Below, piece after piece: positions 5,301 through 63,131 of a stretch of 64,000 nt of DNA (positions are counted from its first letter, which is position 1; every line of letters begins with the position of its first letter). Origin of the DNA: Nannocystis pusilla (GTDB lineage: Bacteria; Myxococcota_A; Polyangia; Nannocystales; Nannocystaceae). The stretch covers positions 273,694 through 337,693 of the forward strand of contig NZ_JAIRAU010000002.1 in NCBI RefSeq assembly GCF_020073745.1. The letters are read 5' to 3'. The translations under genes and the position numbers were made by a program. The notes beneath the pieces were generated by a model. The model saw only the letters and a program-made list of their open reading frames with translations. It did no database searches and had not been told where the DNA came from.

Positions 5301-6140
5301 TCACGCGGGTACGAAGCAGGCCCCAGCGTTCTCGTAACCCGGGGCCGGAGCGGGGAACAGACTCTCACACAGCGAGGGCGACGCGCACTGGCCGTCGCCC
5401 TCGCTGATCTCGCACGTGGAGGTGCAGCAGCTGCTCGAGCCGCAATTGGGTACGAGAGCGCCGGGCATGCATACGTATGTCGGGGCGCACCCGCGGCCGT
5501 TGAACTCCGAGCAGTTGGTGCCCTCGGTGCCGATGTCGACGTCGAGCATCATGTCGCAGATGAAGCGGTCCTTGCCCTGCCGACAGCCGAGGCCGGGCGG
5601 ACAGGTGCCCACGAAGGGATCACAGCTGTCCGCGCAGAAGGTCGTGCCGGTGAACGGGCTGGTGCTGCACAGGCCGGGCTCGCAGTCGACGTCGTTGCGA
5701 CAGAGCGGGAAGCAGCGGCCCGCGAGCGGGTCGTCCTGGGTCGACGAGAGGCACACCGTGCCGGCGCCGCACTGGTCCTGGCCGCTCTCGGGCGCAGGCG
5801 TGCAGGGATCGAGCGGCAGCAGCGCGCTGTCGTCGGGGACGCACTTGAAGTGGTTCTGCAGGCCGCCGTCGCTGACGGCGGTGCACTTCTGTCCCATCGG
5901 ACATGCGGGCGTTCCGGACGGTTCACAGTCGAAGACCGGGGTGAAGTCGGGCGGCTGTTGCGGGCCGCCCGTCGGCTCGGTGTCGGACTCGGTCTCGCCG
6001 CCGCTGCTGCCGACCTCGTCGTTGCCGGCGCTGTCGCCGTCGTCGAAGGGGACGCGCTGACATGCCCCGGCGAGCATGAACACAAGGACAGGTGCGAGGC
6101 GAGCGGCGGCGACGCCGGGGCGGAGGTGCGCGGCGAACAT
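5301..6140 (-). CDS. Cys-rich secreted lipoprotein (about 40 Cys in 279 aa, acidic N-terminal linker)
   Basis: Start MFAAHLRPGVAAARLAPVLVFMLAGAC has a lipobox. Repeated CxxxxC/CxxGxxC patterns. The ORF-track ORF 5301..7028 was trimmed to this ATG. Confidence 0.6.
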   Translation of the reverse strand: MFAAHLRPGVAAARLAPVLVFMLAGACQRVPFDDGDSAGNDEVGSSGGETESDTEPTGGPQQPPDFTPVFDCEPSGTPACPMGQKCTAVSDGGLQNHFKCVPDDSALLPLDPCTPAPESGQDQCGAGTVCLSSTQDDPLAGRCFPLCRNDVDCEPGLCSTSPFTGTTFCADSCDPFVGTCPPGLGCRQGKDRFICDMMLDVDIGTEGTNCSEFNGRGCAPTYVCMPGALVPNCGSSSCCTSTCEISEGDGQCASPSLCESLFPAPAPGYENAGACFVPA

Positions 6141-6336
6141 GGGCTCACAGTAGCAGGTGAGCGCGTGCCCGGCCCGACGCCGGCAGGCGCGAGCCGAGCA
6201 CGTCCGATCGCGGACGGGTGGCGTGCTCGCTCCTGTGCGCAGGGAGGTCGAGCGATCGGACAGGCGGACGCTTGAGCGGACAGGTGGACGGCGGGGAGGA
6301 TGGCGATGCCCGACGTCGAGGTCATCGTCGGCGAGA

Positions 6337-6510
6337 GATCGCGGACGAACTGGTTTCGGTGGACGCGAGATCGCGGACGAACTGGTTTCGGTGGACGCGA
6401 CGATCGCGGACGAACTGGTTTGGCGGACGCGACGATCGCGGGCGAACTGGTTTCGGTGGACGCGACGATCGCGGACGACCTGGTTTGGCGGACGCGGCGA
6501 TCGCGGACGA
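6337..6510. repeat. Tandem direct repeat, 5-6 copies of a 32-33 bp unit (consensus gatcgcggacgaactggtttcggtggacgcgac)
   Basis: Read directly. Units start at about 6337, 6369, 6402, 6434, 6467 and 6499; the last is degenerate. Lies in the intergenic region between the HEPN gene's 3' end and the Cys-rich lipoprotein gene's 5' end. There are no spacers, so it is not CRISPR. Confidence 0.8.
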
Positions 6511-6568
6511 GTGCGTCCGTGCCGGATCGAACGGACGATGTCCCCGGCGGGAGCGCGGCGGGCGAACG

Positions 6569-7054
6569 CTACAGCGCGGCGGTCCGCAGGTCGTCGATCG
6601 CGGTCGCGCAGGCGTGGACGATGGCGCGCGCGTGGTCGAGGCCCTGCTGGGCGGCGTGGTTGGGGCCGCGGTGGAGCTGGACCAGGACCTCGGCGCCGGA
6701 GGAGCCGGCCGTGAGCACCACCGGGATGGCCATGAGGGCGCGGGCGGCCTCGGCGGCGCGGGTGGCGAGGGGGACCAGGTTCTCGGGGGTGCTGTCGCCG
6801 AGCAGCCGCAGGTGGTCGACGTAGCTGCGACCCCAGCGGGTCTCGGCGGCGGCGAGGGCGTCGGGGCTGCCCTGTGCGCGCGCCCAGGCGACCAGGACGG
6901 CGTTGAGGGCCATGCCGGCAGCCCGGCGGGCGTGGGTGAGGGCGGTGCGGCGGACGGCCACGTGGTCGGCCCCGGCCTCGAGCTCGCTGAGGGCGGAGCG
7001 CAGCCACGCGTCCGCGTCGAGGCGCCACAGCCAGTGGGCCTCGGCCTCGGTCAT
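6569..7054 (-). CDS. HEPN-domain protein
   Basis: 161 aa; R-x4-H motif (VRRTALTHARRAAGMALNAVL) in an all-helical context. The ATG overlaps the upstream gene's stop (ATGA). Confidence 0.55.
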   Translation of the reverse strand: MTEAEAHWLWRLDADAWLRSALSELEAGADHVAVRRTALTHARRAAGMALNAVLVAWARAQGSPDALAAAETRWGRSYVDHLRLLGDSTPENLVPLATRAAEAARALMAIPVVLTAGSSGAEVLVQLHRGPNHAAQQGLDHARAIVHACATAIDDLRTAAL

Positions 7055-7596
7055 CCCGAGCTCCCCGAGCTGGTCGAGTCGGTGTCGCCGGTCGAACCGG
7101 TGGTGGTCGTCGTCGTCGAGCCGGACGAGGTCGAGCCGGTGGTGGTCGTGCTCGTGTCGGTGGTCGAGGTGGTGTCGTCGGTCGTCGTCGAGGTCGACGT
7201 GGTCGTCGTGTCGGTCGTGCCGGTCATCGACGAGGCGGTGGTGCCGTCGGTCGGGCCGCTGTCGCTCTCGCTGAGGCTGTTGCTGCCGGGGCCGGCGAGG
7301 TCGCGCTTCGACGGCAGGTCGTCGCGCACGGGCATCTCGTCGAGCGGCTCGCCGGCGGAGTCGGTGTCGATGCTCTCGGCGACGACGCACTGACCGATGA
7401 CGCCGGGCTTGAAGCAGGCGTCGCCGGCGAGGACCTTCTCGCCCTCGGCGTAGCACTCGAAGCCGGCTCCGCAGTCGCTGGCGCAGCGGCACGGATCGCC
7501 GGCCTTGGTGCGGCAGGCCGCGAGCGCGAACAGGGCGGCCAGCGCGACGCCGGTGGCGACGTCGTGCGGCCTGCGGCGCGGGCGAGGCGACCTCAT
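7051..7596 (-). CDS. Lipoprotein with a Cys-rich domain and a long Thr/Ser-rich C-terminal tail
   Basis: Lipobox LAALFALAAC. Cys-rich segment CRCASDCGAGFECYAEGEKVLAGDACFKPGVIGQC. Poly-T/S tail. 4-bp overlap with the HEPN gene. Confidence 0.6.
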   Translation of the reverse strand: MRSPRPRRRPHDVATGVALAALFALAACRTKAGDPCRCASDCGAGFECYAEGEKVLAGDACFKPGVIGQCVVAESIDTDSAGEPLDEMPVRDDLPSKRDLAGPGSNSLSESDSGPTDGTTASSMTGTTDTTTTSTSTTTDDTTSTTDTSTTTTGSTSSGSTTTTTTGSTGDTDSTSSGSSG

Positions 7597-8077
7597 GAGA
7601 TGGCCTTGTACTCGACGTGGACGACCTCGTATTCCCGGTCGCCCTTGGGCAGCTTGACCAGGACCTCGTCGCCGACCCGCTTGCCCAGCATGGCGCGGGC
7701 GATCGGGGCGCCGAGCGAGATCTTGCCCTTGTCGGCGTCGGACTCGTCCTCGCCGACGATCCGGTAGACGACCTTCTGGTCGTTCTCGACGTCGAGCATC
7801 GTCACGGTGGCGCCGAAGGTGACCTTGTCTTCCTTGACGGTCTCGGGGTCGATGACCTGGGCCATGCCGATGCGCGACTCGAGGTAGCGCATGCGGGCGT
7901 CGAGCTGGGCCTGGCGCTCCTTGGCGGCGTGGTACTCGGCGTTCTCACGCAGGTCGCCGTGGCCGAGCGCGGTCTCGATGTCGCGGACGTTCTCGGGGCG
8001 GTCGACTTCCTTGATCTGCTTGAGCTCGGCGCGCAGCTTGGCGTACCCCGCGGGGGTCATCGGGATCTTCTGCTCGG

Positions 8078-11336: not shown

Positions 11337-12065
11337 TCAGCGCTCCTTGATGTGGGTGCCGTCGAAGGTGTGGTCGTTGCCGATGGCCTTGCTGACGACG
11401 TCGCGGTGGGCGCTGACGTCCCAGCCGAGACGCGCGAGGCCGGTGAGGATCCGGGTGCGGAGGCGCAGCGAGTCCTCCGCGGGGTTGCCGAGGCGGGCGA
11501 TCAGCGGGCCGAGCGAGCGCGGCTCGGCGATGTCGAGCAGCGCCTCGACGGCGAAGAAGCGCACGCCCTCGTCGGGGTCCTCGAGGTAGCCGGCGAGGAT
11601 GTCGGGGACCCGCTCGTCGTCGATCTCCTGCAGGTGCGTGAGCAGCTGCAGCTTGGCGCTCGGGTCGCGCTCGTAGCCCGGCGGGTGGTGGGCCAGCAGG
11701 GCGTCGAGGATGTCCCACTCCTGCTGCTTGCTCGCCAGCTCCTCGACCACGCGCAAGACCCACGCGATGTTGTCGCTCTGCAGGCAGAACTCCTTGGCGG
11801 CGGGCAGCACGGTGTCGACCGGGAGGCCGAGCAGGCGCTTGTAGAGCCAGCCCTTCTCCTCCTCGTCCTCGATCGACTTGCTGGCGTTCATCGTGAACCG
11901 CTTCATCAGGCCGACGATCGCCGGGATCTCCGCCAGCTCGAGCAGCTGTTCCATCGCGTAGTAGCGGTCGGCCGACTGCGCGTACTGGTTCTGGACGGTC
12001 TTGATGTGCTTGTCGAGCTTGCTCTTGCTGCGGCCCGCGCTGCTGAAGAGGTCCTTGAATCCCAC
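11337..12065 (-). CDS. Hypothetical helical-repeat (HEAT-like) protein, co-oriented with carB
   Basis: 242 aa predicted all-alpha protein. Its stop is 4 bp from the carB start. Good GC3. Confidence 0.5.
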
Positions 12066-37275: not shown

Positions 37276-39636
37276 TCAGCGCCGCTTGATCACCACCGTC
37301 GTGATGTCGTCGAAGACCTTCTGCGCGCCGATGAAGCGCATGACGTCGTCGATGATCGCCTGCTTGATCTCGGCCGCCGTCCGCTCGTGCACGCGGCGCA
37401 CCGCCTCGCACAGGCGCTCGATCCCGTACTGCTCGCCGTGGATGTCCTCCGCCTCGGTAATGCCGTCAGTGTACAGGACGACGACGTCGCCCGGCGACAG
37501 CCGCAGCTCGGTGTGGGCGATGAACGTGGCGATGTCGACCTCGAGCCCGACCGGCATGCCGAGGTCGACGGTGTCGATGCGCTCGATCGAGCCGCCCCGC
37601 CGCACGACCACGGCCTCCTCGTGCTGCCCCGTGAGGCGGAGCACCCCCTGCGAGTAGTCGAGCAGGACCAGGGTGGCGGTGCGGTCGAGACCGACGCGCT
37701 GGATGTTCTGGTAGAGGACCTTGTTGACGATGTTGAGGAAGCGCTCCGCGTCGCGCTCCTCCGCGGCCTGCAGGGTGCGCACCGCCGTCTGGATCATCAG
37801 CATCAAGACGCCGCTCTCGAGGCCGTGCCCGGTGACGTCGCCGATGCCGATCTTGACGCCGCCGGCGTGGCGCAGGACGTCGTAGTAGTCGCCGCCGACC
37901 TCGTCGGCCGGGCGCATGTAGCCGGCGACCTCGAGGCCGTCGAGCTCGGCCAGCTCGCGGTCGGGCGGCAGGACCATCAGCTGCAAGCGCCGGGCGACGT
38001 CGAGCTCGGCGCCGAGCCGCAGGTTCTCCTGCTTGAGCCGCTCGTTCAGCGCCATGATCTCGCGGCTGGCCCGCTGCAGCTCGGCGGTCCGCTGTTCGAC
38101 CAGGCTCTCGAGGTTGTGCGTATACGCGCGGATCTCCGCGGCCATCTGGTTGAAGGCGCGGCCGAGCGCGCCGAACTCGTCGCTGCTGCGCACGTCGACG
38201 CGCACGTCGTAGTCCTTCTGCGCGATCTTGCCGGCGCCGGCGGCGAGGTCGGACAGCGCGCTGGTCATGCGCCGCGAGACCAGGAAGATCCCGAGCATCA
38301 CCACCGCGAGCGCCACCAGCGTGATGACGATCTGGCTGGTGAGGATCCCGCGGCTGCTGGCGGCGATGGTGGCCTGGGCGTTGATCAGCGAGCTGTAGAT
38401 CTCGGCGGCCGGGACGACGAAGCCCAGCGTCCACCGCTCGGGCTTGATGTCGGCCGAGCCCGACCAGGCGTTGAACGGCTCGAGCCGCTTGAGCACGACG
38501 ACGTAGTCCTGGCCGCCGATCGCTACCGGGTCGCGGTAATCGACGGCGTCGCCGCTCGGCAGCGCGAGGGCGCGGATCGCCGGGTCGCGCGATTGATGGA
38601 GGAACTGCTGGAAGATGTCGACGCCGGCGCCCGACGAGCCGCTGATCTGCTGCAGGCCGAGGATGTCCTTGCCGTCGTCGTTGACGGCGAACACGTTGCC
38701 GTTCTCCTGGGCGAGGAAGGCGAAGCCCGAGCTGGCGAGCTGCAGGTCCTGGACGTGGCGGATCAATTGACTGAGCGTGACGTCGACGCCGACGGCCCCG
38801 GCGAACCGCGTGCGCGAGACGTCCCACAGCGGCTGGAACAGGGTCATGATGGCCCCGCTGCCGCCCGCGTCGGTGTACGGCGAGGTGCCGGTGACCTGCG
38901 CGGCGGGGTCGCGCATGCGCGCGGGGTCGCCGATCCAGCGCTGCCAGCCCTCGACGATGCCGGGGAAGTAGAAGCTCCAGAACGGGCTGGCGTTGTGCCC
39001 GGGGTACTGCTTGTCGGCGTGGCCGGCCGCGTCGGCCCACGGCGCGATCCGCAGGTACTCGGCGCCCGCGGGGCCGATGAAGTACATGGCCTGCTTCTCG
39101 GCCCCGTGCTGGAGGAGCGGCGGCAGCAGCAGGTCGAGCAGGGCGGTGCGCTCGACGGCGGCCCGGACCTCGGGCTTGATGTCCCGAAGGCCAGGTTTGT
39201 TCGGGTCGGCCGGGGCGTGCAGGTAGCCCCACACGGCGACCGCCGAGGGCTCGCCTTCAGCGGTCTGCGACCAGTCGCCGGCCGGGTCGTAGACCAGGGC
39301 GTCGCGCAGCGGCGAGGTCGTGGCTGCGGCGGCGGTCAGCGGCGCGAGCGCGTCCTGCTGGTCGATCAAGGTCTGGGCGACGGCCGCGAGCACGCCGAGC
39401 TCGGCGCGCGCGCGGCCGTGGTAGAACTCGACCCGCCGCGCGGTGTCCTCGATGTGATTGGTGAGGTACTCGCGACTGGCGCGCTCGAGGCCGTTGCGGA
39501 TCTCGTCGGAGGCGTCGCCGCCGAGCGAGCGGATGCCCTGCAGCGAGGCCAGCGCGGCGAGCGTCAGGCCGATCACCAGCCCGACCCCGGCGACGAGGAC
39601 GAACTTGGTGCGGAACCTGGAGCCCGTGATGGCCAT
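37276..39636 (-). CDS. Membrane sensor phosphatase with periplasmic domain, HAMP and PP2C (SpoIIE-like) domains; SiaA-like
   Basis: TM1 FVLVAGVGLVIGLTLAALASL. ~500-aa periplasmic region. TM2 IVITLVALAVVMLGIFLV. HAMP. PP2C motifs GDYYD, GDVTGHG and LYTDGITE. Confidence 0.8.
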   Translation of the reverse strand: MAITGSRFRTKFVLVAGVGLVIGLTLAALASLQGIRSLGGDASDEIRNGLERASREYLTNHIEDTARRVEFYHGRARAELGVLAAVAQTLIDQQDALAPLTAAAATTSPLRDALVYDPAGDWSQTAEGEPSAVAVWGYLHAPADPNKPGLRDIKPEVRAAVERTALLDLLLPPLLQHGAEKQAMYFIGPAGAEYLRIAPWADAAGHADKQYPGHNASPFWSFYFPGIVEGWQRWIGDPARMRDPAAQVTGTSPYTDAGGSGAIMTLFQPLWDVSRTRFAGAVGVDVTLSQLIRHVQDLQLASSGFAFLAQENGNVFAVNDDGKDILGLQQISGSSGAGVDIFQQFLHQSRDPAIRALALPSGDAVDYRDPVAIGGQDYVVVLKRLEPFNAWSGSADIKPERWTLGFVVPAAEIYSSLINAQATIAASSRGILTSQIVITLVALAVVMLGIFLVSRRMTSALSDLAAGAGKIAQKDYDVRVDVRSSDEFGALGRAFNQMAAEIRAYTHNLESLVEQRTAELQRASREIMALNERLKQENLRLGAELDVARRLQLMVLPPDRELAELDGLEVAGYMRPADEVGGDYYDVLRHAGGVKIGIGDVTGHGLESGVLMLMIQTAVRTLQAAEERDAERFLNIVNKVLYQNIQRVGLDRTATLVLLDYSQGVLRLTGQHEEAVVVRRGGSIERIDTVDLGMPVGLEVDIATFIAHTELRLSPGDVVVLYTDGITEAEDIHGEQYGIERLCEAVRRVHERTAAEIKQAIIDDVMRFIGAQKVFDDITTVVIKRR

Positions 39637-55286: not shown

Positions 55287-56090
55287 TCAGTTGACGGCGA
55301 CGGGGGCGGCGCCGCCGAACAGGCGCTCCTCGATGGCGGCCAGGCGGGCGCCGACGCGGCCCTCGCCGGCGATCCCGCGCAGGCGCGAGAACACGCGCGC
55401 GGCCGTCCGCTCGGCCAGACCGCGGACGCGGTAGCGCCAGCTCGAGCGCTCGTCGGCGGTGCCGATCAGGACCTGCAACGAGCCGAGCAGCTCGTGCTCG
55501 ATGCGGTCGACGAGCGGGGTCAGGTCGGGCTTGTCGTGGGCGACGTTGAAGTGGATGAGGTCGGTCAGCGCGGCGCATACCTGGGTGCGGGCGGCCCGGA
55601 AGCGCTCGGGCTGATCACCGAGATCGGCGTGGATCCCGTCGGCCAGCGCCTGGATGAAGCCGCGCAGGTTCTGCTCGGCGTCGCGGAGGTGGGTCGCGTC
55701 GCGGAGGTCGCGGCGGAGCTCGCCGAGCTCGGCCAGGAGATCGGCGGCGATGTGGAAGCTGTCGAGCGCGCGCACCGAGGGGGTGCCCGGGGGCAGGGCG
55801 CGGTCGAAGCGGAGGCGCGGACGCTCGGCCGACAGCGCGGCGTCGTCGTGCTCGAAGCCGTCGTCGTGGATGTCCTGGCTGTCGCTCGTCGACGCCCCGG
55901 CCTCGTGACCCTCGGCCGGCACCTCGTCGTCGCCCTGGCCGCTGTACTTGCCGGACATGAGGTCGTCGCGGTCGATGAGCCAGCGCGAGCCGACGCGGCG
56001 GGCCGGCAGGCGGCCGGTCTGGGCCATGTGCCGCACGGTGCGCTCGCTCTTGCCGAGCAGGTCGGCGGCGTCCTTGATCGAGATCTCCAT
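55287..56090 (-). CDS. MerR/excisionase-type HTH DNA-binding protein with an acidic helical C-terminal domain
   Basis: N-terminal MEISIKDAADLLGKSERTVRHMAQTGRLPARRVGSRWLIDRDDL. GGAGG RBS. The start was derived from ORF-table arithmetic. Confidence 0.6.
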   Translation of the reverse strand: MEISIKDAADLLGKSERTVRHMAQTGRLPARRVGSRWLIDRDDLMSGKYSGQGDDEVPAEGHEAGASTSDSQDIHDDGFEHDDAALSAERPRLRFDRALPPGTPSVRALDSFHIAADLLAELGELRRDLRDATHLRDAEQNLRGFIQALADGIHADLGDQPERFRAARTQVCAALTDLIHFNVAHDKPDLTPLVDRIEHELLGSLQVLIGTADERSSWRYRVRGLAERTAARVFSRLRGIAGEGRVGARLAAIEERLFGGAAPVAVN

Positions 56091-56377
56091 AGAGGTCCTC
56101 CTGTGTGCCGCGCACTCTAACCGAAGTCGGATCATGCGCCGCAAAATCGGCAGAAACTTTGCCGGTTGCGGCAGCGCCCCTTGCCGTTTCTGGATCCAGC
56201 AGCCAGTCTCCACCGGTGCGAAAACCCGAGCATCAATGGGAGACGCGCCGTTTCGTGGCCGTCCGCGCGACCGAGGTGCCGCGGCCACACGCGGCCGAGG
56301 AGGCGGTGCAGGCGTTCGAGCTCCGACGCCGCGGCGGAGGTGACGCACTGTCTGCGGTGTTCTCGCTGGGTCGGCAG

Positions 56378-57313
56378 ATGCTGCCCCGAGAGGCGGTGGC
56401 CGAGGACCCCGACCTGCTCCATGCGGCCCGCGCCTGGCTCGCCGCGCGAGGCTCTCGCAAGCTTCGTGCCGTCGATGAGGAAGTGGCGCCGATCTGCTCG
56501 GAACAATTCACGTTGTCGGACCTCGGGTCGAGCGCCGGGCAACCTGTCCGAAAGGTCATCACACTGGCGCCGTCGAATGCCGAGCTGGTGGCCAGCCTGG
56601 GCTGCTTCGACCGCGTGATCGCGTGCGAGGACTCGTCGGACTGGCCGCCGGAGACGGCCGACCGCGAACGCCTCGGGCCGGACCTCGGGCCGGATCTGGA
56701 TCGCGTGGCCGAGCTGCGACCTGACCTTGTGTTCAGCTCGCTGTCGGTGCCGGGGATGGAGCGGATCGTGACGGGACTGCGCGCACGCGGGGTGCCGCAG
56801 CGCGTGCTGGCGCCGCGATCGATCGCCGACGTGCAGGCCGAGGTCCGACTGGCCGGGGCCGACCTCGAGGTGCCGGGACGCGCAGAAGAAGTGGTGGCGC
56901 AGCTGGAGGCGGAGGCGGCGGCGCTGCGCGCGAGCCGGCCGCCGCGCCCGGCGAAGGTCTACCTCGAGTGGTGGCCGCGGCCGATGTTCACCCCGGGCGC
57001 GGCGTGCTTCAGCAACAACCTCATCGAGCTGGCCGGGGGAGTCAACGTGTTCGCCGACCGCCCAGGGGCGAGCGTGGAGATCACGGCGGAGGAGTTGGTC
57101 GCGGCCGACCCGGATATCTGCTTCGTGTCGTGGTGCGGAGTCGCGGTCGAGAAGCTCGACCCCGAGAACTTGATCACACGCGCAGGCCTCGAGTCGCTGC
57201 GAGCGGCCCGCGCCGGTCGGGTGCTCCGCCTCGACGAACGCTACTCCGGACGCCCTGGACCGCACATGCTCGAGGCAGCACGCATCATGGCGCGCGCGAT
57301 CGCCAGCTTGTGA
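56378..57313 (+). CDS. Periplasmic-binding-protein-like (BtuF/TroA-like, class III PBP fold) protein; N-terminus uncertain
   Basis: VITLAPSNAELVASLGCFDRVIACEDSSDWP, with a second lobe (YLEWWPRPMFTPGAACFSNNLIELAGGVNVF). Confidence 0.5.
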   Translation: MLPREAVAEDPDLLHAARAWLAARGSRKLRAVDEEVAPICSEQFTLSDLGSSAGQPVRKVITLAPSNAELVASLGCFDRVIACEDSSDWPPETADRERLGPDLGPDLDRVAELRPDLVFSSLSVPGMERIVTGLRARGVPQRVLAPRSIADVQAEVRLAGADLEVPGRAEEVVAQLEAEAAALRASRPPRPAKVYLEWWPRPMFTPGAACFSNNLIELAGGVNVFADRPGASVEITAEELVAADPDICFVSWCGVAVEKLDPENLITRAGLESLRAARAGRVLRLDERYSGRPGPHMLEAARIMARAIASL

Positions 57314-57368
57314 AACGAAGTGCGTCGATTTTTTGCGCGGCGGATCGAGGTGTGACAAGGCTGCGCCC

Positions 57369-57656
57369 ATGGTGTCGCTCGAACTGCAGGTCGCCCGCCT
57401 CGTCGATGAACTCGCGCAGTACCACGGCCATCGCACGCTGTGGCTCGATCGCCGCGGGTACCTGTGCCACGCGGAGCCGGAGGACGATTTCGAGGACATC
57501 GGCTACCAGTACGTGGCGACGATGTTCCGGCCGTCCGAGGACGAGCTGCGCAGCACGATCACGCACTTCACGGCGCGCCGCGCGGCTCGCCTCGGGGCTT
57601 GTCCGGTTCCGGGGGCGTTCCACATGCACCCGGTGCCGGTGCTGATGGCGATCTGA
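57369..57656 (+). CDS. Small hypothetical protein
   Basis: 95-aa ORF with reasonable GC3 and no known motif. Confidence 0.3.
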   Translation: MVSLELQVARLVDELAQYHGHRTLWLDRRGYLCHAEPEDDFEDIGYQYVATMFRPSEDELRSTITHFTARRAARLGACPVPGAFHMHPVPVLMAI

Positions 57657-57835
57657 TTCTTGGGACAGGGTGCGCTTCGCAGCGCGTGGCGAACATGGGG
57701 CGCTTCGAGTCGATTGGCTCGGGGCGCTTGTCGTCGCGGAGATGGACTCGGGGGCTCGCGGTGCGGAGATAGGCTGGAGGGGCTTCGCTGATTGCCGGAT
57801 GCGCCTCGCATGGGGTCCGGGGATGCCTCGGCCGC

Positions 57836-58700
57836 GAGTTCAGCGGGCCGATGACCCCGACTTCGTCGTGGTCATCTTGCCCTCGTATTCGCGTCCGAGG
57901 CATCCCCGGACCCCGAGCACGGCTCACCCGTGAAAAGCCGACCCGCCGTCGTCGGCTTCGATGGCGGCTGTCCTCTGGGACATGTCCTTTGCTGCCTGTT
58001 CGACGGCCTGGTCGGCCGCCGAACAGGCGCTTTCTCTCGTCAATACCGGCGGGTCATCTCCCGCGACGAGTCGCGGCCGCGCGGGCTCTGCGGTGTAGCG
58101 AGTTCAGCGGACCCATGACCCGACTTCGTCGTGGTCATCTTGCCGCGGCGAGTCGCGGGCGAGGCATCCCCGGACCCGAGCACGGCTCACTCGTGAAAAG
58201 CCGACCCGCCGTCGTCGGCTTCGATGTTGGCTGTCCTCCGGGACATGTCCTTTGCTGCCTGTTCGACGGCCTGGTCGGCCGCCGAACAGGCGCTTTCTCT
58301 CGTCAATACCGGCGGGTCATCTCCCGCGACGAGTCGCGGCCGCGCGGGCTCTGCGGTGTAGCGAGTTCAGCGGACGCATGACCCGACTTCGTCGTGGTCA
58401 TCTTGCCGCGGCGAGTCGCGGGCGAGGCATCCCCGGACCCGAGCACGGCTCACCCGTGAAAAGCCGACCTGCCGTCGTCGGCTTCGACGGGGGGCTGTCC
58501 TCCGAGACATGTCCTTTGCTGCCTGTTCGACGGCCTGGTCGGCCGCCGAACAGGCGCTTTCTCTCGTCAATACCGGCGGGTCATCTCCCGCGACGAGTCA
58601 TGGTTGCGCGCCGGCTCTGCGGAGGCGGAGGCGGGCGCCGAACAGGCGCTTTCTCTCGTCGATACCGGCGGGTCGTCTCCCGCGCCGAAGATGTCGGCCT
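57836..58700. repeat. About 3.3 tandem copies of a ~264-bp highly structured non-coding element
   Basis: Near-identical units begin at about 57841, 58105 and 58368, with a partial fourth. Each unit contains hairpins gatgacc-N13-ggtcatc, aagccgac-N8-gtcggctt, ggacatgtcc, ctgttcg-N17-cgaacag and cccgcgac-gag-tcgcgg. Confidence 0.85.
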
Positions 58701-58795
58701 GTGCGCCGGGACATGTCTCTGCTGGGTACCCGGAAGTAGGCTACTCGCGCCGAAGACGGTCTTTGGGACAGGTCCGAGAGGACCTGGGCTTCGAG

Positions 58796-60175
58796 TCATG
58801 CGCGGGCGCGGCGGCGGCGGGAGAGGGCGGCGAGCGTGAGGAGCAGCGCGAGCGGGGGGGCTGGTGGGCCGGGGGAGCGGCAGCCGCAGCCGGCGTCGGT
58901 GTCGACGCCGCCGCTGCTGCCGTCGCCGTCGCCGGTGGTGGGGCCGGAGGAGGAGGTGGTGGCGTCGGTGGTGGGGGCGGTGCCGGTGGTGGGCGGGTCG
59001 ACGGGGCCGCTGTCGGAGGCGCTGTCGGGCGGGTCACCGGTGGTGTCGTCGCCGCCGGTGCTGGTGCCGGCCTCGCAGAAGACGCCGGGGGCGATCGGGC
59101 CGGCGCTGAAGGTGCGGTTGATGATGCTGGCCCGGCCGCGGGTCTGGCCGACCCACATGGCGATCGAGCGATCGATGATCTCGTCGATGAGGGCGTACTC
59201 CTCCTCGCACAGGACCTCGCCGGGGCGCTTGACGAGGAGGAAGGAGATGCCGAACTCGTTGGGGGCGTCGGGGTAGGCGGGCACGCGCTCGCCCTCGGCC
59301 ATGATCACGTCGTCGATGGTGACGTCGCGGCGGGTGCCGCCGACGGTGAAGCTGTCGGCCTTGAAGAGGAAGGAACTGGCCGGGGGACACTCCTGGTTCG
59401 GCAGCGCGGAGTCGACGCAGTCGTGCGGATCCTCGATGACGAACCACGGCTTCACCTCGGACGGATCCATGAGCCCCATGAGGTAGAGGTCGAGGTCGCT
59501 GAACTCGAACTGCTCGAGCTTGGCGGCGGTGAAGGTGCCGTCACCGTTGTCGGTCCAGCGGTGACCCTCGACCGGCGAGCCGCCGCTGTGCATGTAGAAG
59601 CTCCAGTGGGCCTGCGAGCGCCCGAGCAACAGCTCGGTGTTGCCGCCGCCGGCGACGTGCGGGAAGGCCAGCCAGGCGTGCCCGAGCTCCTGACCGAACA
59701 CGAGCGAGATCCACCAGTCGTCGATCTCGGTGGTGCCGGTGAGGATGAACTTGCGCCAGTTGTTCATGTGCAACATGCCGATGAACTGGCTGTTCGGCGT
59801 GTCGTCGAAGAACTCGGCCGGGATCACCGGATCGAAGTCGGCGGCGTGGGAATAGCCGATGCCGGCGACGTCGTTGGCGAGCGACTGATAGAAGGCGCCG
59901 ACGCCGTCGACGAGATCGAAGGTGGAGTAGACGACGATGAACTGGCCGTCGTCGGGGTGAACCTCGAGGAAGCCGTCCTCGAGCGGGTAGTAGCCGCCGT
60001 AGAAGCCGGTGCGCGAGAACCAGTTGGCGTGCTCGACGGTGCCGTCGTCGTCGAACACCATGAAGTTCTTGCGCTGCTCGACGAACTGGACCGGACCGGC
60101 GTGCGCCGTGTCGAGGAGGAGGAGGTCGAGGCCGAGGACGAGGGCGAACGGTGCGACCAGGGCGAGGCGAGGCAC
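58796..60175 (-). CDS. Secreted hypothetical protein with MYXO-CTERM-like sorting tail
   Basis: GTG start. Signal peptide [27 protein letters not shown]-terminus ...[33 protein letters not shown]. Confidence 0.6.
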
Positions 60176-62618: not shown

Positions 62619-63131
62619 GTGAAAATTTTCGTCGGTGGACTGGCGTGGGCGACGGGCGACGAGAGCCTGCGCGCGGCCTTTGAACCCTTCGGTAAGGTCG
62701 ACGAGGCGATCGTCGTCAAGGACAAGGAGACCATGCGCAGCCGTGGCTTCGGGTTCGTGACGTTCGCCGATGAGGCGGCCGGTCGTGCCGCGCTCGAGGC
62801 GATGAACGGCGCGGTGCTCGACGGGCGGACCATCCGCTGCGACGCCGCGGTCGAGCGCGCCCGCAGCGATCGGCCCTCGCGGCCCTTCGTCGAGCGTGCG
62901 CCCTCGGGCGGCTTCCAGGGCGGTGGCGGCGGTCCCCGCGGTGGCGGCGGCGGCGGCGGCGGTCGTGACTGGGGCGGCGGCGGCGGTGGTCGCGGCGGTG
63001 GCGGCGGCGGCGGCGGCTGGGGCGGCGGCGGCGGCGGCGGTGGTCGCGGCGGCGGCGGCGGCGGCGGTGGTCGCGGCGGCCGTGGCGGTCGTGGCGGCCG
63101 GCGGCGCGACGACGACGACTACGGCGACTGA
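62619..63131 (+). CDS. Glycine-rich RNA-binding protein with N-terminal RRM
   Basis: RNP2 KIFVGGL and RNP1 RGFGFVTF, then a GGGRGG-repeat tail. GTG start with a gagaga/aggag RBS region. Confidence 0.85.

Follow-up and report, generated by a model that had tools for sequence, protein, structure and literature searches.

REP sequences are 20-40 nt long, carry a conserved GTAG-type head and occur in hundreds per genome, and REPINs are mobilised by RAYT transposases. In enterobacteria and pseudomonads, REP/BIME sequences are extragenic and palindromic, often lie between convergent genes and form composite clusters that grow by local tandem duplication, with hairpin arms that co-evolve; they are thought to act as 3'-end stabilisers, terminators and protein-binding sites. 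In Enterobacteriaceae, transcribed intergenic regions carry ERIC (IRU) elements, imperfect palindromes of 127 bp. These and the Correia/NEMIS elements of Neisseria reach tens to hundreds of copies, vary in presence between related genomes and can supply terminators or processing sites, and Correia elements have defined TIRs and a TA target duplication. The MIRUs of Mycobacterium tuberculosis are 46-101 bp long, not strongly palindromic, and are found inside operons at about 40 loci. A repetitive intergenic sequence of Myxococcus xanthus with an 87-bp core was reportedly described by Fujitani, Komano and Inouye (J Bacteriol, 1991).

The locus described here lies in a 64-kb stretch of Nannocystis pusilla DNA (the window) and consists of about 3.2 copies of a 263/264-bp unit. 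We assign a probability of roughly 0.6 to the reading that the array arose when an internal segment of 263 bp was amplified in tandem, in a strain-specific and VNTR-like manner, within a ~300-bp palindrome-rich non-coding element (ERIC/MITE/BIME-like), which is present at low copy number in convergent spacers of some Nannocystis lineages. Like REP/BIME sequences, the element is extragenic, palindromic and located between convergent genes, shows coordinated change in hairpin arms and grows by local tandem duplication, and by analogy it may share some of their proposed 3'-end roles; it differs from them in size (unit 263 bp, element ~300 bp), in having two known loci and in having no GTAG-type head. 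With ERIC/IRU and Correia/NEMIS it has in common a long (about 130-nt) imperfect palindrome, an intergenic and probably co-transcribed position, and variable presence between related genomes. It has no sequence relationship to those families, which come from a different phylum, neither their high copy number nor clearly defined TIRs with a TA target duplication, as in Correia elements, were found here, and tandem 263-bp arrays are atypical of them. Head-to-tail intergenic units at several loci, with copy number differing between close strains, recall MIRU-VNTR; a further parallel is that MIRUs extend over stop and start codons of their neighbouring genes, and the first repeat at the second locus overlaps a stop codon. 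The period (263 bp here, 40 nt at the second locus), the richness in hairpins, the convergent-gene site and the two known loci are unlike MIRU-VNTR. The M. xanthus repeat is likewise a short repeated intergenic element in a myxobacterium, but that organism belongs to a different suborder, and its repeat is set apart by its description, which gives a different sequence.

The array occupies a non-coding spacer of 1,139 bp between a 95-aa gene and a convergent MYXO-CTERM protein gene, in agreement with an earlier note that had placed it in a non-coding region of about 1 kb, 3' of a small plus-strand ORF and 3' of a minus-strand MYXO-CTERM gene. The features of the locus are as follows.

57369-57656, plus strand: 95-aa conserved hypothetical gene (ORF), 3' end facing the array, GC3 0.885
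57657-57762, no strand: proximal spacer with degenerate ~29-nt repeats (GGGGCGCTTCG..GCGGAGAT.GGCTC), as read from the sequence
57763-58097, plus strand: first complete element copy (left end, palindrome A, hairpins B, C, D and E)
57796-57930, no strand: module A, a near-perfect palindrome of 135 nt whose arms measure 66 nt; no inverted repeat in the window is longer
57834-58097, plus strand: unit 1, 264 bp
57935-57958, minus strand: module B, hairpin AAGCCGAC-N8-GTCGGCTT, -18.7 kcal/mol on the minus strand, repeated in units 2 and 3
57969-57987, plus strand: module C, TGTCC-N4-GGACA hairpin overlapping the GGACATGTCC palindrome, terminator-like in a consensus scan
57994-58028, plus strand: module D, 35-nt hairpin GCCTGTTCGACGGCC-TGGTC-GGCCGCCGAACAGGC, then GCTTTCTCTC, the most conserved part of the element
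58047-58076, no strand: module E, CGGCGGGTC (58047-58055) and the palindrome CCGCGAC-GA-GTCGCGG (58061-58076)
58098-58360, plus strand: unit 2, 263 bp
58361-58624, plus strand: unit 3, 264 bp
58632-58688, plus strand: incomplete fourth copy of 57 nt, made up of E and the right arm of D, 93% identical to 58013-58069
58689-58795, no strand: spacer tail, with a C-like motif (58699-58717) and the hairpin AGGTCC-GAGA-GGACCT (58770-58785)
58796-60175, minus strand: convergent gene for a 459-aa secreted protein with a MYXO-CTERM sorting signal (TIGR03901, 24.7 bits, cut-off 20 bits), GC3 0.956

The array is by a wide margin the strongest tandem repeat of the window (TRF: 57834-58622, period 263, 3.0 copies, 94% matches, 1% indels, score 1377). 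Three tandem copies and a partial fourth, as the earlier note had described, are present; the unit starts given there (57841, 58105 and 58368) denote the same TRF array with the phase shifted by 7 nt, and its figure of more than 90% identity is essentially right. By BLAST, units 1 and 2 are 94.0% identical, units 2 and 3 94.7% and units 1 and 3 90.5%; with gaps counted the values are 94.0%, 93.6% and 89.6%. When the units are aligned with the copy in a metagenomic relative (L005) and one from a second locus (L027), unit 1 matches both in columns 49-63, while units 2 and 3 share a derived patch. Unit 1 is, by this agreement, the apparent ancestral copy. A 29-nt sub-repeat (GGTCATCT..CCGCGRCGAGTCGCGG) is present twice in unit 2 and twice in unit 3, and the E palindrome of unit 3 is degraded by four clustered transitions and a CC insertion.

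The stem-loops noted earlier in each unit are real: the unit folds with z = -3.9 on the plus strand and -4.0 on the minus strand relative to dinucleotide shuffles. The largest structure, palindrome A, had been overlooked; it consists of the start of unit 1 and the preceding 38 nt, its left arm lies outside the repeated segment, and only the first unit has both arms. Its folding energy is -100.8/-104.8 kcal/mol (z = -10.5/-11.8), and a covariance model of A scores 157.7 bits at 57796-57930, compared with only 33.8 bits in unit 2 and 28.6 in unit 3. The 66-nt arms are 76% complementary. Homology between the two loci extends well past A on both sides, and the common part is 57763-58070. Between the copies, six pairs in A are changed on both sides, against 2.0 in shuffles (2/500), and no such double changes were found in the other hairpins. 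Palindrome A is kept by compensatory changes and looks constrained.

Hairpin D (CTGTTCG...CGAACAG) has z = -5.8 on the plus strand and -8.1 on the minus strand, where it is the more stable, and has conserved flanks (TTTGCTG and GCGCTTTC). The window, L005 and L027 share an invariant run of 35 aligned columns around it (57991-58026); invariant runs in shuffled alignments average 12 columns and never exceed 29, and 0/20,000 reach 35. Hairpin D, too, looks constrained. In the sister species N. radixulma, a single change in D produces a G-T pair (G-U on the plus strand only). Termination alone does not explain such strict conservation, which includes the loop and an A-C mismatch and points to sequence-specific recognition by a protein. 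The remaining modules are less uniform. A hairpin at the position of B is also found in L005 and L027, in a different register; C is kept in L005 and not in L027, with a related copy in the spacer tail at 58699-58717; and the E palindrome differs between the loci. CGGCGGGTC in module E (58047-58055) is complementary to GACCCGCCG (57940-57948), forming a long-range 9-bp complement that brackets C and D and is invariant in 5/5 copies.

At the second locus (L027 and L032-L036), the ~300-bp element lies in a 707-bp spacer between convergent YCII and SAM-methyltransferase genes; positions 1743-1436 of L027 align with 57763-58070 of the window at 83.8% identity over 309 nt. The corresponding site in Nannocystis sp. 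SCPEA4 is a 200-bp spacer without the element, which is also absent there from L041. Comparison of L032 with SCPEA4 places the beginning of the extra DNA immediately 3' of the methyltransferase stop codon. An E-like module is repeated 6.9 times at this locus with a 40-nt period, the first repeat overlapping a stop codon, and an E-like module is also duplicated within the partial copy of the window. Thus, module E is the amplification-prone end of the element, and this end has been amplified independently at both loci (263 bp three times here, 40 nt 6.9 times at the second). Taken together, the two loci present convergent spacers in myxobacteria as hot spots for the gain, loss and amplification of palindromic DNA.

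At the first locus, the number of copies ranges from 0 to 3 among close relatives. At the syntenic site of N. radixulma the flanks are 92-95% identical, but the spacer measures 372 bp and retains just 99 bp of the unit: D and E are kept, and A to C are lacking, as are two thirds of the unit. L005 contains one unit, about 78% identical, followed by different sequence. The spacer of the more distant P0002 lineage is 93 bp long and has no element, and that of the P0004 lineage is unrelated. The array is therefore strain-specific, and one copy, a fragment or none in close relatives marks an ordinary, fast-changing intergenic repeat whose head-to-tail units vary in number as those of VNTR or MIRU-like loci do. 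With 0 to 3 copies among genomes and well-conserved flanks, it offers a ready-made VNTR marker for strain typing in Nannocystis. We also considered whether contigs that break after the 95-aa gene (L003, L004, L006, L028 and L031) indicate a multi-copy repeat and rejected the argument, because a long palindrome alone breaks de Bruijn assemblies.

Slipped-strand or unequal recombination may have produced the amplification, with the hairpins and the 29-nt sub-repeat favouring it, and the element itself may have spread through rare transposition or recombination. If it affects the host at all, it would probably do so by terminating transcription in both directions and insulating the converging gene pair. 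On the plus strand the terminator would be hairpin D, terminator-like in appearance and followed by a U-rich tail; on the minus strand the stem of B is followed by UUUU, so that B would be terminator-like for the MYXO-CTERM gene. A consensus terminator scan flagged only hairpin C, in units 1 and 2, and left B and D unflagged. Three units would provide three stacked terminator pairs, and the extra copies are probably neutral.

Among the three proposals of the earlier note (a tandem multi-copy structured sRNA, a BIME-like composite REP array and a protein-binding scaffold), the BIME-like array comes closest in behaviour: the element is palindrome-rich, extragenic and between convergent genes at both known loci, occurs at at least two loci, is absent from the corresponding sites of relatives and is amplified locally in tandem. 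Membership of the REP/BIME class itself is unsupported. Although hairpin D is REP-sized (35 nt), no conserved GTAG/GTGG-type REP head was found in the element; GTAG occurs only where unit 1 meets unit 2 and unit 2 meets unit 3, and neither L005 nor L027 has it. Nor were tens to hundreds of dispersed copies found in the window, the related loci or an exact 21-mer scan, and "dispersed" here refers to two loci only, found in different lineages. Beyond the copies described, searches with nhmmer (a five-unit profile) and the covariance model of A detected none in the 64-kb window or across some 125-190 kb from related loci. Hits at 11657-11766, 39365-39432 and similar positions (E 0.007 or worse) are GC-rich hairpins in coding regions and were discarded. 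In an exact scan of a genome collection, the unit 21-mer GAACAGGCGCTTTCTCTCGTC occurs once in the N. radixulma representative and is absent from the other Nannocystis representatives; a match in a Desulfobacteraceae MAG (L002) was attributed to chance, with nothing in common beyond 24 nt. Whole genomes were covered by exact patterns, so diverged copies may exist. Plasmid and phage collections gave no blastn match, a scan of viral contigs found no hairpin D, and the literature yielded nothing relevant on REP or MITE elements of Nannocystis or other myxobacteria.

A first alternative, which we regard as unlikely, is that the element is a non-autonomous mobile element (MITE or REPIN-like) and the array a by-product of its activity, with the arms of A serving as terminal inverted repeats or D as the site of a transposase acting in trans (Y1/RAYT, IS200-type). 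Presence and absence at two unrelated convergent spacers, the start of the second-locus DNA directly after a stop codon, the compensatory changes that keep palindrome A between loci, and an invariant D hairpin, as expected of a recognition site, all fit such an element. Several observations speak against it: (i) Neither a target-site duplication nor a clean boundary emerged when the window was compared with N. radixulma and L032 with SCPEA4. (ii) About 250 kb of Nannocystis DNA contained no further copies, and the exact 21-mer had its single match in the N. radixulma genome. (iii) The copies are only 75-78% identical, which indicates no recent burst. (iv) The retention of D and E without A to C in N. 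radixulma is more readily explained by deletion of an unstable palindrome than by clean excision. The three element lineages are roughly equidistant at this level of identity, which fits old paralogy as well as mobility. A more specific version, in our view still less probable, would be an undescribed kind of low-copy mobile DNA in Nannocystis that lands precisely at 3' ends between convergent genes, carries its own bidirectional terminator pair, tends to amplify at its E end and has D as the putative site of a trans-acting recombinase or transposase. Were D such a protein recognition site, the element might be a small new example of hairpin-dependent mobile DNA in Myxococcota.

The units could also be tandem genes for structured sRNAs, or the 3' UTR of the 95-aa gene could be processed into sRNAs, with D closing each unit. 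Folding below that of shuffles (z about -4) would suit this idea, as would the highly conserved D followed by GCUUUCUCUC, which resembles an intrinsic terminator, and the N. radixulma change in D that leaves a G-U pair on the plus strand only. Yet the unit folds equally strongly on the minus strand, on which D is the more stable, and a scan detected no promoter-like site on either strand, with readings of sigma-54 and sigma-70 sites by eye unconvincing. The Rfam comparison suggested in the earlier note gave no match when the complete window was scanned at gathering scores; a looser search of 57300-59000 by E-value returned only sub-threshold hairpin models, the best of them eukaryotic miRNA precursors, which reach 35 bits where 137 is the gathering score. 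RNAalifold gives an unfavourable covariation term (+3.48), and the double changes are confined to A, which is equally a DNA palindrome. A copy number of 0-3 in close relatives and the loss of two thirds of the unit in the sister species also argue against an RNA gene. Thus, there is no evidence for a new RNA gene, and we consider the sRNA proposal improbable.

We hold even less to the proposal of a DNA-level protein-binding scaffold, in which a regulator or nucleoid protein would attach to the palindromes (TGTCC-N4-GGACA, GGACATGTCC, CCGCGACGAGTCGCGG and hairpin D), whose number the array would raise. Each unit has several perfect short palindromes, D is conserved in sequence with its loop, and the structure is strand-symmetric, as expected of double-stranded DNA sites. 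A position between two gene 3' ends is unusual for operators, however; palindrome C is not kept in L027, palindrome E varies from locus to locus and shows decay in unit 3, and copy number is not conserved. The genes nearby, which encode an excisionase-type HTH protein, a periplasmic binding protein and an ABC-F ATPase, include no candidate binding protein.

The element is non-coding. Within the array, GC by codon position is 0.61-0.75 in every frame, without periodicity, compared with a GC3 of 0.86-0.96 in the flanking genes. Indels between units are not multiples of three, and because periods of 263 and 264 occur in one array, a reading frame cannot be kept by both. As the earlier note had observed, the small ORFs lose their frame in the third copy: 45-aa ORFs lie at 57961-58098 and 58224-58361, and their counterpart in copy 3 has no ATG and one additional base. 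Open frames of 176 and 195 aa cross the array, but long open frames are common by chance at 68-72% GC. The 176-aa ORF has no homologs among 5.8 billion proteins in a word-indexed search; an exhaustive HMMER search of 1.84 billion representatives returned one match for the 195-aa ORF, a 613-aa repeat protein (E = 5.6e-4), which we rejected as unrelated, a spurious artefact of RRFL-type repeats. In Pfam, no domain scores above its cut-off for the array ORFs, the only hit being SEP with 20.3 bits against 27. The earlier note had named a degraded protein-coding gene with detectable homologs as one finding that would refute its proposals. Decay of a coding gene, or of part of one, after tandem duplication would account for the two long open frames, but it is effectively refuted by the protein, Pfam, codon-position GC and indel results. 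For annotation, the amplified element explains about 1.1 kb of "empty" spacer, in which ORFs of 45 to 195 aa should not be called.

Outside the element, a possible origin of module E from the 3' end of the MYXO-CTERM gene (common CGAGTC..GCGCGGGC) was considered and dropped, as the match is too short and GC-rich. The ortholog of that gene in the P0002 lineage encodes 453 aa. The tail hairpin at 58770-58785 adjoins its stop codon, and the spacer tail is conserved in N. radixulma, where the ~29-nt repeats of the proximal spacer are clearer than in the window; the L003/L004/L005 lineage has a different, 15-16-nt repeat in the proximal position. An exact look-up of the 95-aa protein gave no record; it has eleven homologs with 60-96% identity, all without Pfam domains, and in relatives its gene always follows a Peripla_BP_2 gene.

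The spacer between the gene for a 95-aa protein and a convergent MYXO-CTERM gene holds a non-coding, palindrome-rich, low-copy intergenic element of ~300 bp, polymorphic in presence and copy number and amplified locally in tandem.

57369–57656, plus strand: gene for the 95-aa protein
57796–57930: palindrome A, 135 nt
57834–58097: unit 1
57935–57958: hairpin B
57969–57987: hairpin C
57994–58028: hairpin D
58047–58076: hairpin E
58098–58360: unit 2
58361–58624: unit 3
58632–58688: partial fourth copy, 57 nt, 93% identical to 58013–58069
58796–60175, minus strand: MYXO-CTERM gene

The tandem repetition described in the earlier note was confirmed by TRF as a single array at 57834–58622 (period 263, 3.0 copies, 94% matches, score 1377); no other tandem repeat in the 64-kb window, a piece of Nannocystis genome with a GC content of 72%, comes close to it in strength. 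Stop codon to stop codon (57656 for the 95-aa gene, 58796 for its minus-strand neighbor), the spacer measures 1,139 bp; the product of the neighbor carries a MYXO-CTERM sorting signal (TIGR03901, 24.7 bits; cut-off 20). BLAST identities between units are 94.0% (1 and 2), 94.7% (2 and 3) and 90.5% (1 and 3). Because the units thus differ at ~6–10% of positions, an assembly artefact, either collapse or duplication, was ruled out. A GCGGAG microrepeat (x2.7, 58619–58634) marks the precise 3' border of the array, where unit 3 gives way to the partial fourth copy.

The flanking genes have GC3 values of 0.86–0.96 and GC2 values of 0.44–0.53, compared with 0.61–0.75 in every frame of the array, where all frames are broken between units by the periods of 263 and 264 and by single-base indels. 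A search of 5.8 billion proteins returned no homolog (E ≤ 0.01) of a 176-aa ORF in the array, and a 195-aa ORF has one match (E = 5.6e-4) among 1.84 billion representatives, which we rejected as spurious because the matched protein is unrelated and internally repetitive. Against Pfam, the array ORFs gave nothing above the cut-offs. This evidence argues against coding, as the earlier note had done from the loss of frame in the third copy, and the reading that the note said would refute it, a degraded gene with homologs, is therefore not borne out.

The predicted stem-loops are real: the unit folds with z = −3.9 on the plus and −4.0 on the minus strand, and hairpin D with z = −5.8 and −8.1, respectively, being more stable on the minus strand. 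Equal structure on both strands, with D better on the minus, is what one would expect from DNA palindromes rather than from a strand-specific RNA. A tandem small RNA, one of the earlier suggestions, is left without support, since both strands fold equally, no sigma-70-like promoter was found on either strand, and no Rfam family reached its gathering score in the whole window; in a permissive mode only eukaryotic miRNA-precursor models matched the long palindrome, at 35 bits vs a gathering score of 137. That palindrome, A, comprises part of unit 1 and the preceding 38 nt, is nearly perfect (−100.8 kcal/mol, z = −10.5) and is the longest inverted repeat of the window. Its covariance model (R1) scores 157.7 bits for the first copy and finds weak versions in units 2 (33.8) and 3 (28.6), because the left arm is not part of the segment that is repeated.

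Between the window and L027, a metagenomic contig carrying the element at a second locus, 49 of the 54 pairs in palindrome A are unchanged, three have changed on both sides and still pair, and two are broken. Across three sequences, double changes occur in six pairs of A vs 2.0 in shuffles (2/500), and in 0–2 with the partners slid; none occur in B, C or E. Hairpin B is retained in L027 and in L005, a contig of the closest lineage, only via a register shift, and the RNAalifold covariation term for the whole unit is unfavorable (+3.48). Hairpin D shows no variation over 35 alignment columns in the three lineages; when invariant and variant columns of the alignment were permuted, the mean was 12, the maximum 29, and none of 20,000 shuffles reached 35. 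A 9-bp long-range complement bracketing C and D, GACCCGCCG / CGGCGGGTC, is invariant too, which counts neither for nor against constraint.

A search of the species-representative genome collection for a 21-mer from the unit gave one occurrence, in N. radixulma (NZ_JAQNDN010000023). This locus is syntenic, with flanks 95.2% and 92.4% identical, and window positions 57806–58636 are replaced by 34 bp. Of the element, its 372-bp spacer holds just one stretch of 99 bp, which matches 57984–58082 (modules D and E) at 94%; modules A to C are missing, as is any tandem repeat. Homologs of the 95-aa protein are also present in metagenomic contigs. The closest of these lineages is P0001 (96% amino-acid identity), whose contig L005 has a single complete unit at 78% identity and then runs into unrelated sequence. 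The spacer of lineage P0002 (84%) is 93 bp long and has no similarity to the element, that of P0004 is different and gives no BLAST match, and in P0005 the 95-aa gene has a different gene (ABM) after it. Copy number at this locus therefore varies between zero and 3.2, with a fragment and one copy as intermediate states, and the three-copy state is specific to the window's strain.

Several other features of this neighborhood were observed. The upstream spacer (57690–57790; N. radixulma locus L001, 6900–7010) has its own short degenerate tandem repeats of ~29 nt, replaced in the L003/L004/L005 lineage (L003, 2640–2788) by a different 15–16-nt unit, CTCGAGRTTCGGGYG; in that lineage palindrome A has a right arm complementary to this unit. 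The short-read metagenomic contigs L003, L004, L006, L028 and L031 stop 7–170 bp past the 95-aa gene, L003 exactly at the start of palindrome A. These ends probably reflect assembly breaks at the palindrome or repeats, and such loci are therefore under-represented in metagenome assemblies. The minus-strand gene at 55287–56096, divergent from a periplasmic-binding-protein gene, encodes a protein of 269 aa with an HTH of the excisionase family (TIGR01764, 40.2 bits); it holds the same position in all relatives and was therefore discounted as an indication of mobile DNA at this site.

Scanning metagenomes for the D-hairpin pattern returned one contig, L027, 83.8% identical to 57763–58070. There the element is flanked by a YCII-family gene and a gene for a class I SAM methyltransferase, which again converge, and its orientation with respect to the pair is as at the first locus. 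Five other samples (L032–L036) have this locus with an identical element. In Nannocystis sp. SCPEA4, source of the nearest named relative of the methyltransferase (86%), the spacer between these two genes is 200 bp long and lacks the element vs 707 bp in L032, where the extra DNA starts immediately 3' of the stop codon. The E-like end forms a tandem array of its own (L032, 1405–1679; same in L027 and L033–L036; 40 nt x 6.9, 77% matches), whose first copy in L032 takes in the last codons and stop of the methyltransferase gene; copies of this gene end, CGCGACGGCTGA, recur in the repeats that follow. The element thus occupies at least two unrelated sites, is missing there in relatives, and has had its E end amplified independently at both. 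The three lineage copies are about equidistant (78.4, 78.5 and 75.5%); the element has not undergone a recent burst. Neither a profile HMM built from five units nor the covariance model of palindrome A found an extra copy in the window or in ~125–190 kb of related DNA, and plasmid, phage and viral collections gave nothing.

In alignment columns 49–63, unit 1 resembles L005 and L027, and units 2 and 3 have a common derived patch resembling module E, a pattern which indicates that unit 1 is ancestral and that units 2 and 3 arose later, one from the other. The patch, ~15 nt in the right arm of palindrome A (58133–58161 and 58396–58424), is absent from unit 1, L005 and L027; with it, the arm resembles the module E palindrome (58052–58079 and 58315–58342; 86% identity across 29 nt), as though E had been the donor in a conversion. 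Units 2 and 3 each contain two copies of a 29-nt sub-repeat (in unit 2 at 58133–58161 and 58315–58342, 86% identical). Amplification may have proceeded by slippage or unequal recombination, favored by the hairpins and this sub-repeat. The E palindrome of unit 3 has already begun to decay, having acquired four clustered transitions and an insertion of 2 nt.

The element behaves like REP/BIME, ERIC, Correia-type and MIRU-VNTR elements. The earlier suggestion of a BIME-like REP array thus stands as to behavior but not as to REP membership, given no GTAG head and no high copy number; nor is there the target-site duplication of a MITE. We have therefore filed it as a palindromic intergenic repeat with VNTR behavior, outside every named family, and literature searches returned no description of such repeats in Nannocystis.

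For the host, the likeliest effect would be bidirectional termination: on the plus strand, D has a 15-bp GC-rich stem followed by GCUUUCUCUC, and on the minus strand B has a stem followed by UUUU. This terminator role is put forward tentatively; a simple terminator scan flags hairpin C alone. The strict sequence conservation of D hints instead at sequence-specific recognition. A hairpin-recognizing mobile element that targets 3' ends seems improbable.

The window contains other repeats. A second intergenic tandem array lies at 6337–6510 (32-nt unit GATCGCGGACGAACTGGTTTCGGTGGACGCGAC, 5.4 copies, 92% matches, or period 65 x2.7), within a ~2-kb stretch (6061–8077) that has no strong codon-position GC signal, and a weaker repeat (39 nt x2.5) at 7074–7170. 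GC-rich short-period repeats occur at 62919–63106 (27-nt GGC-rich unit x6.9) and 58925–58993 (18-nt unit x4), the latter inside the low-complexity linker preceding the MYXO-CTERM signal.
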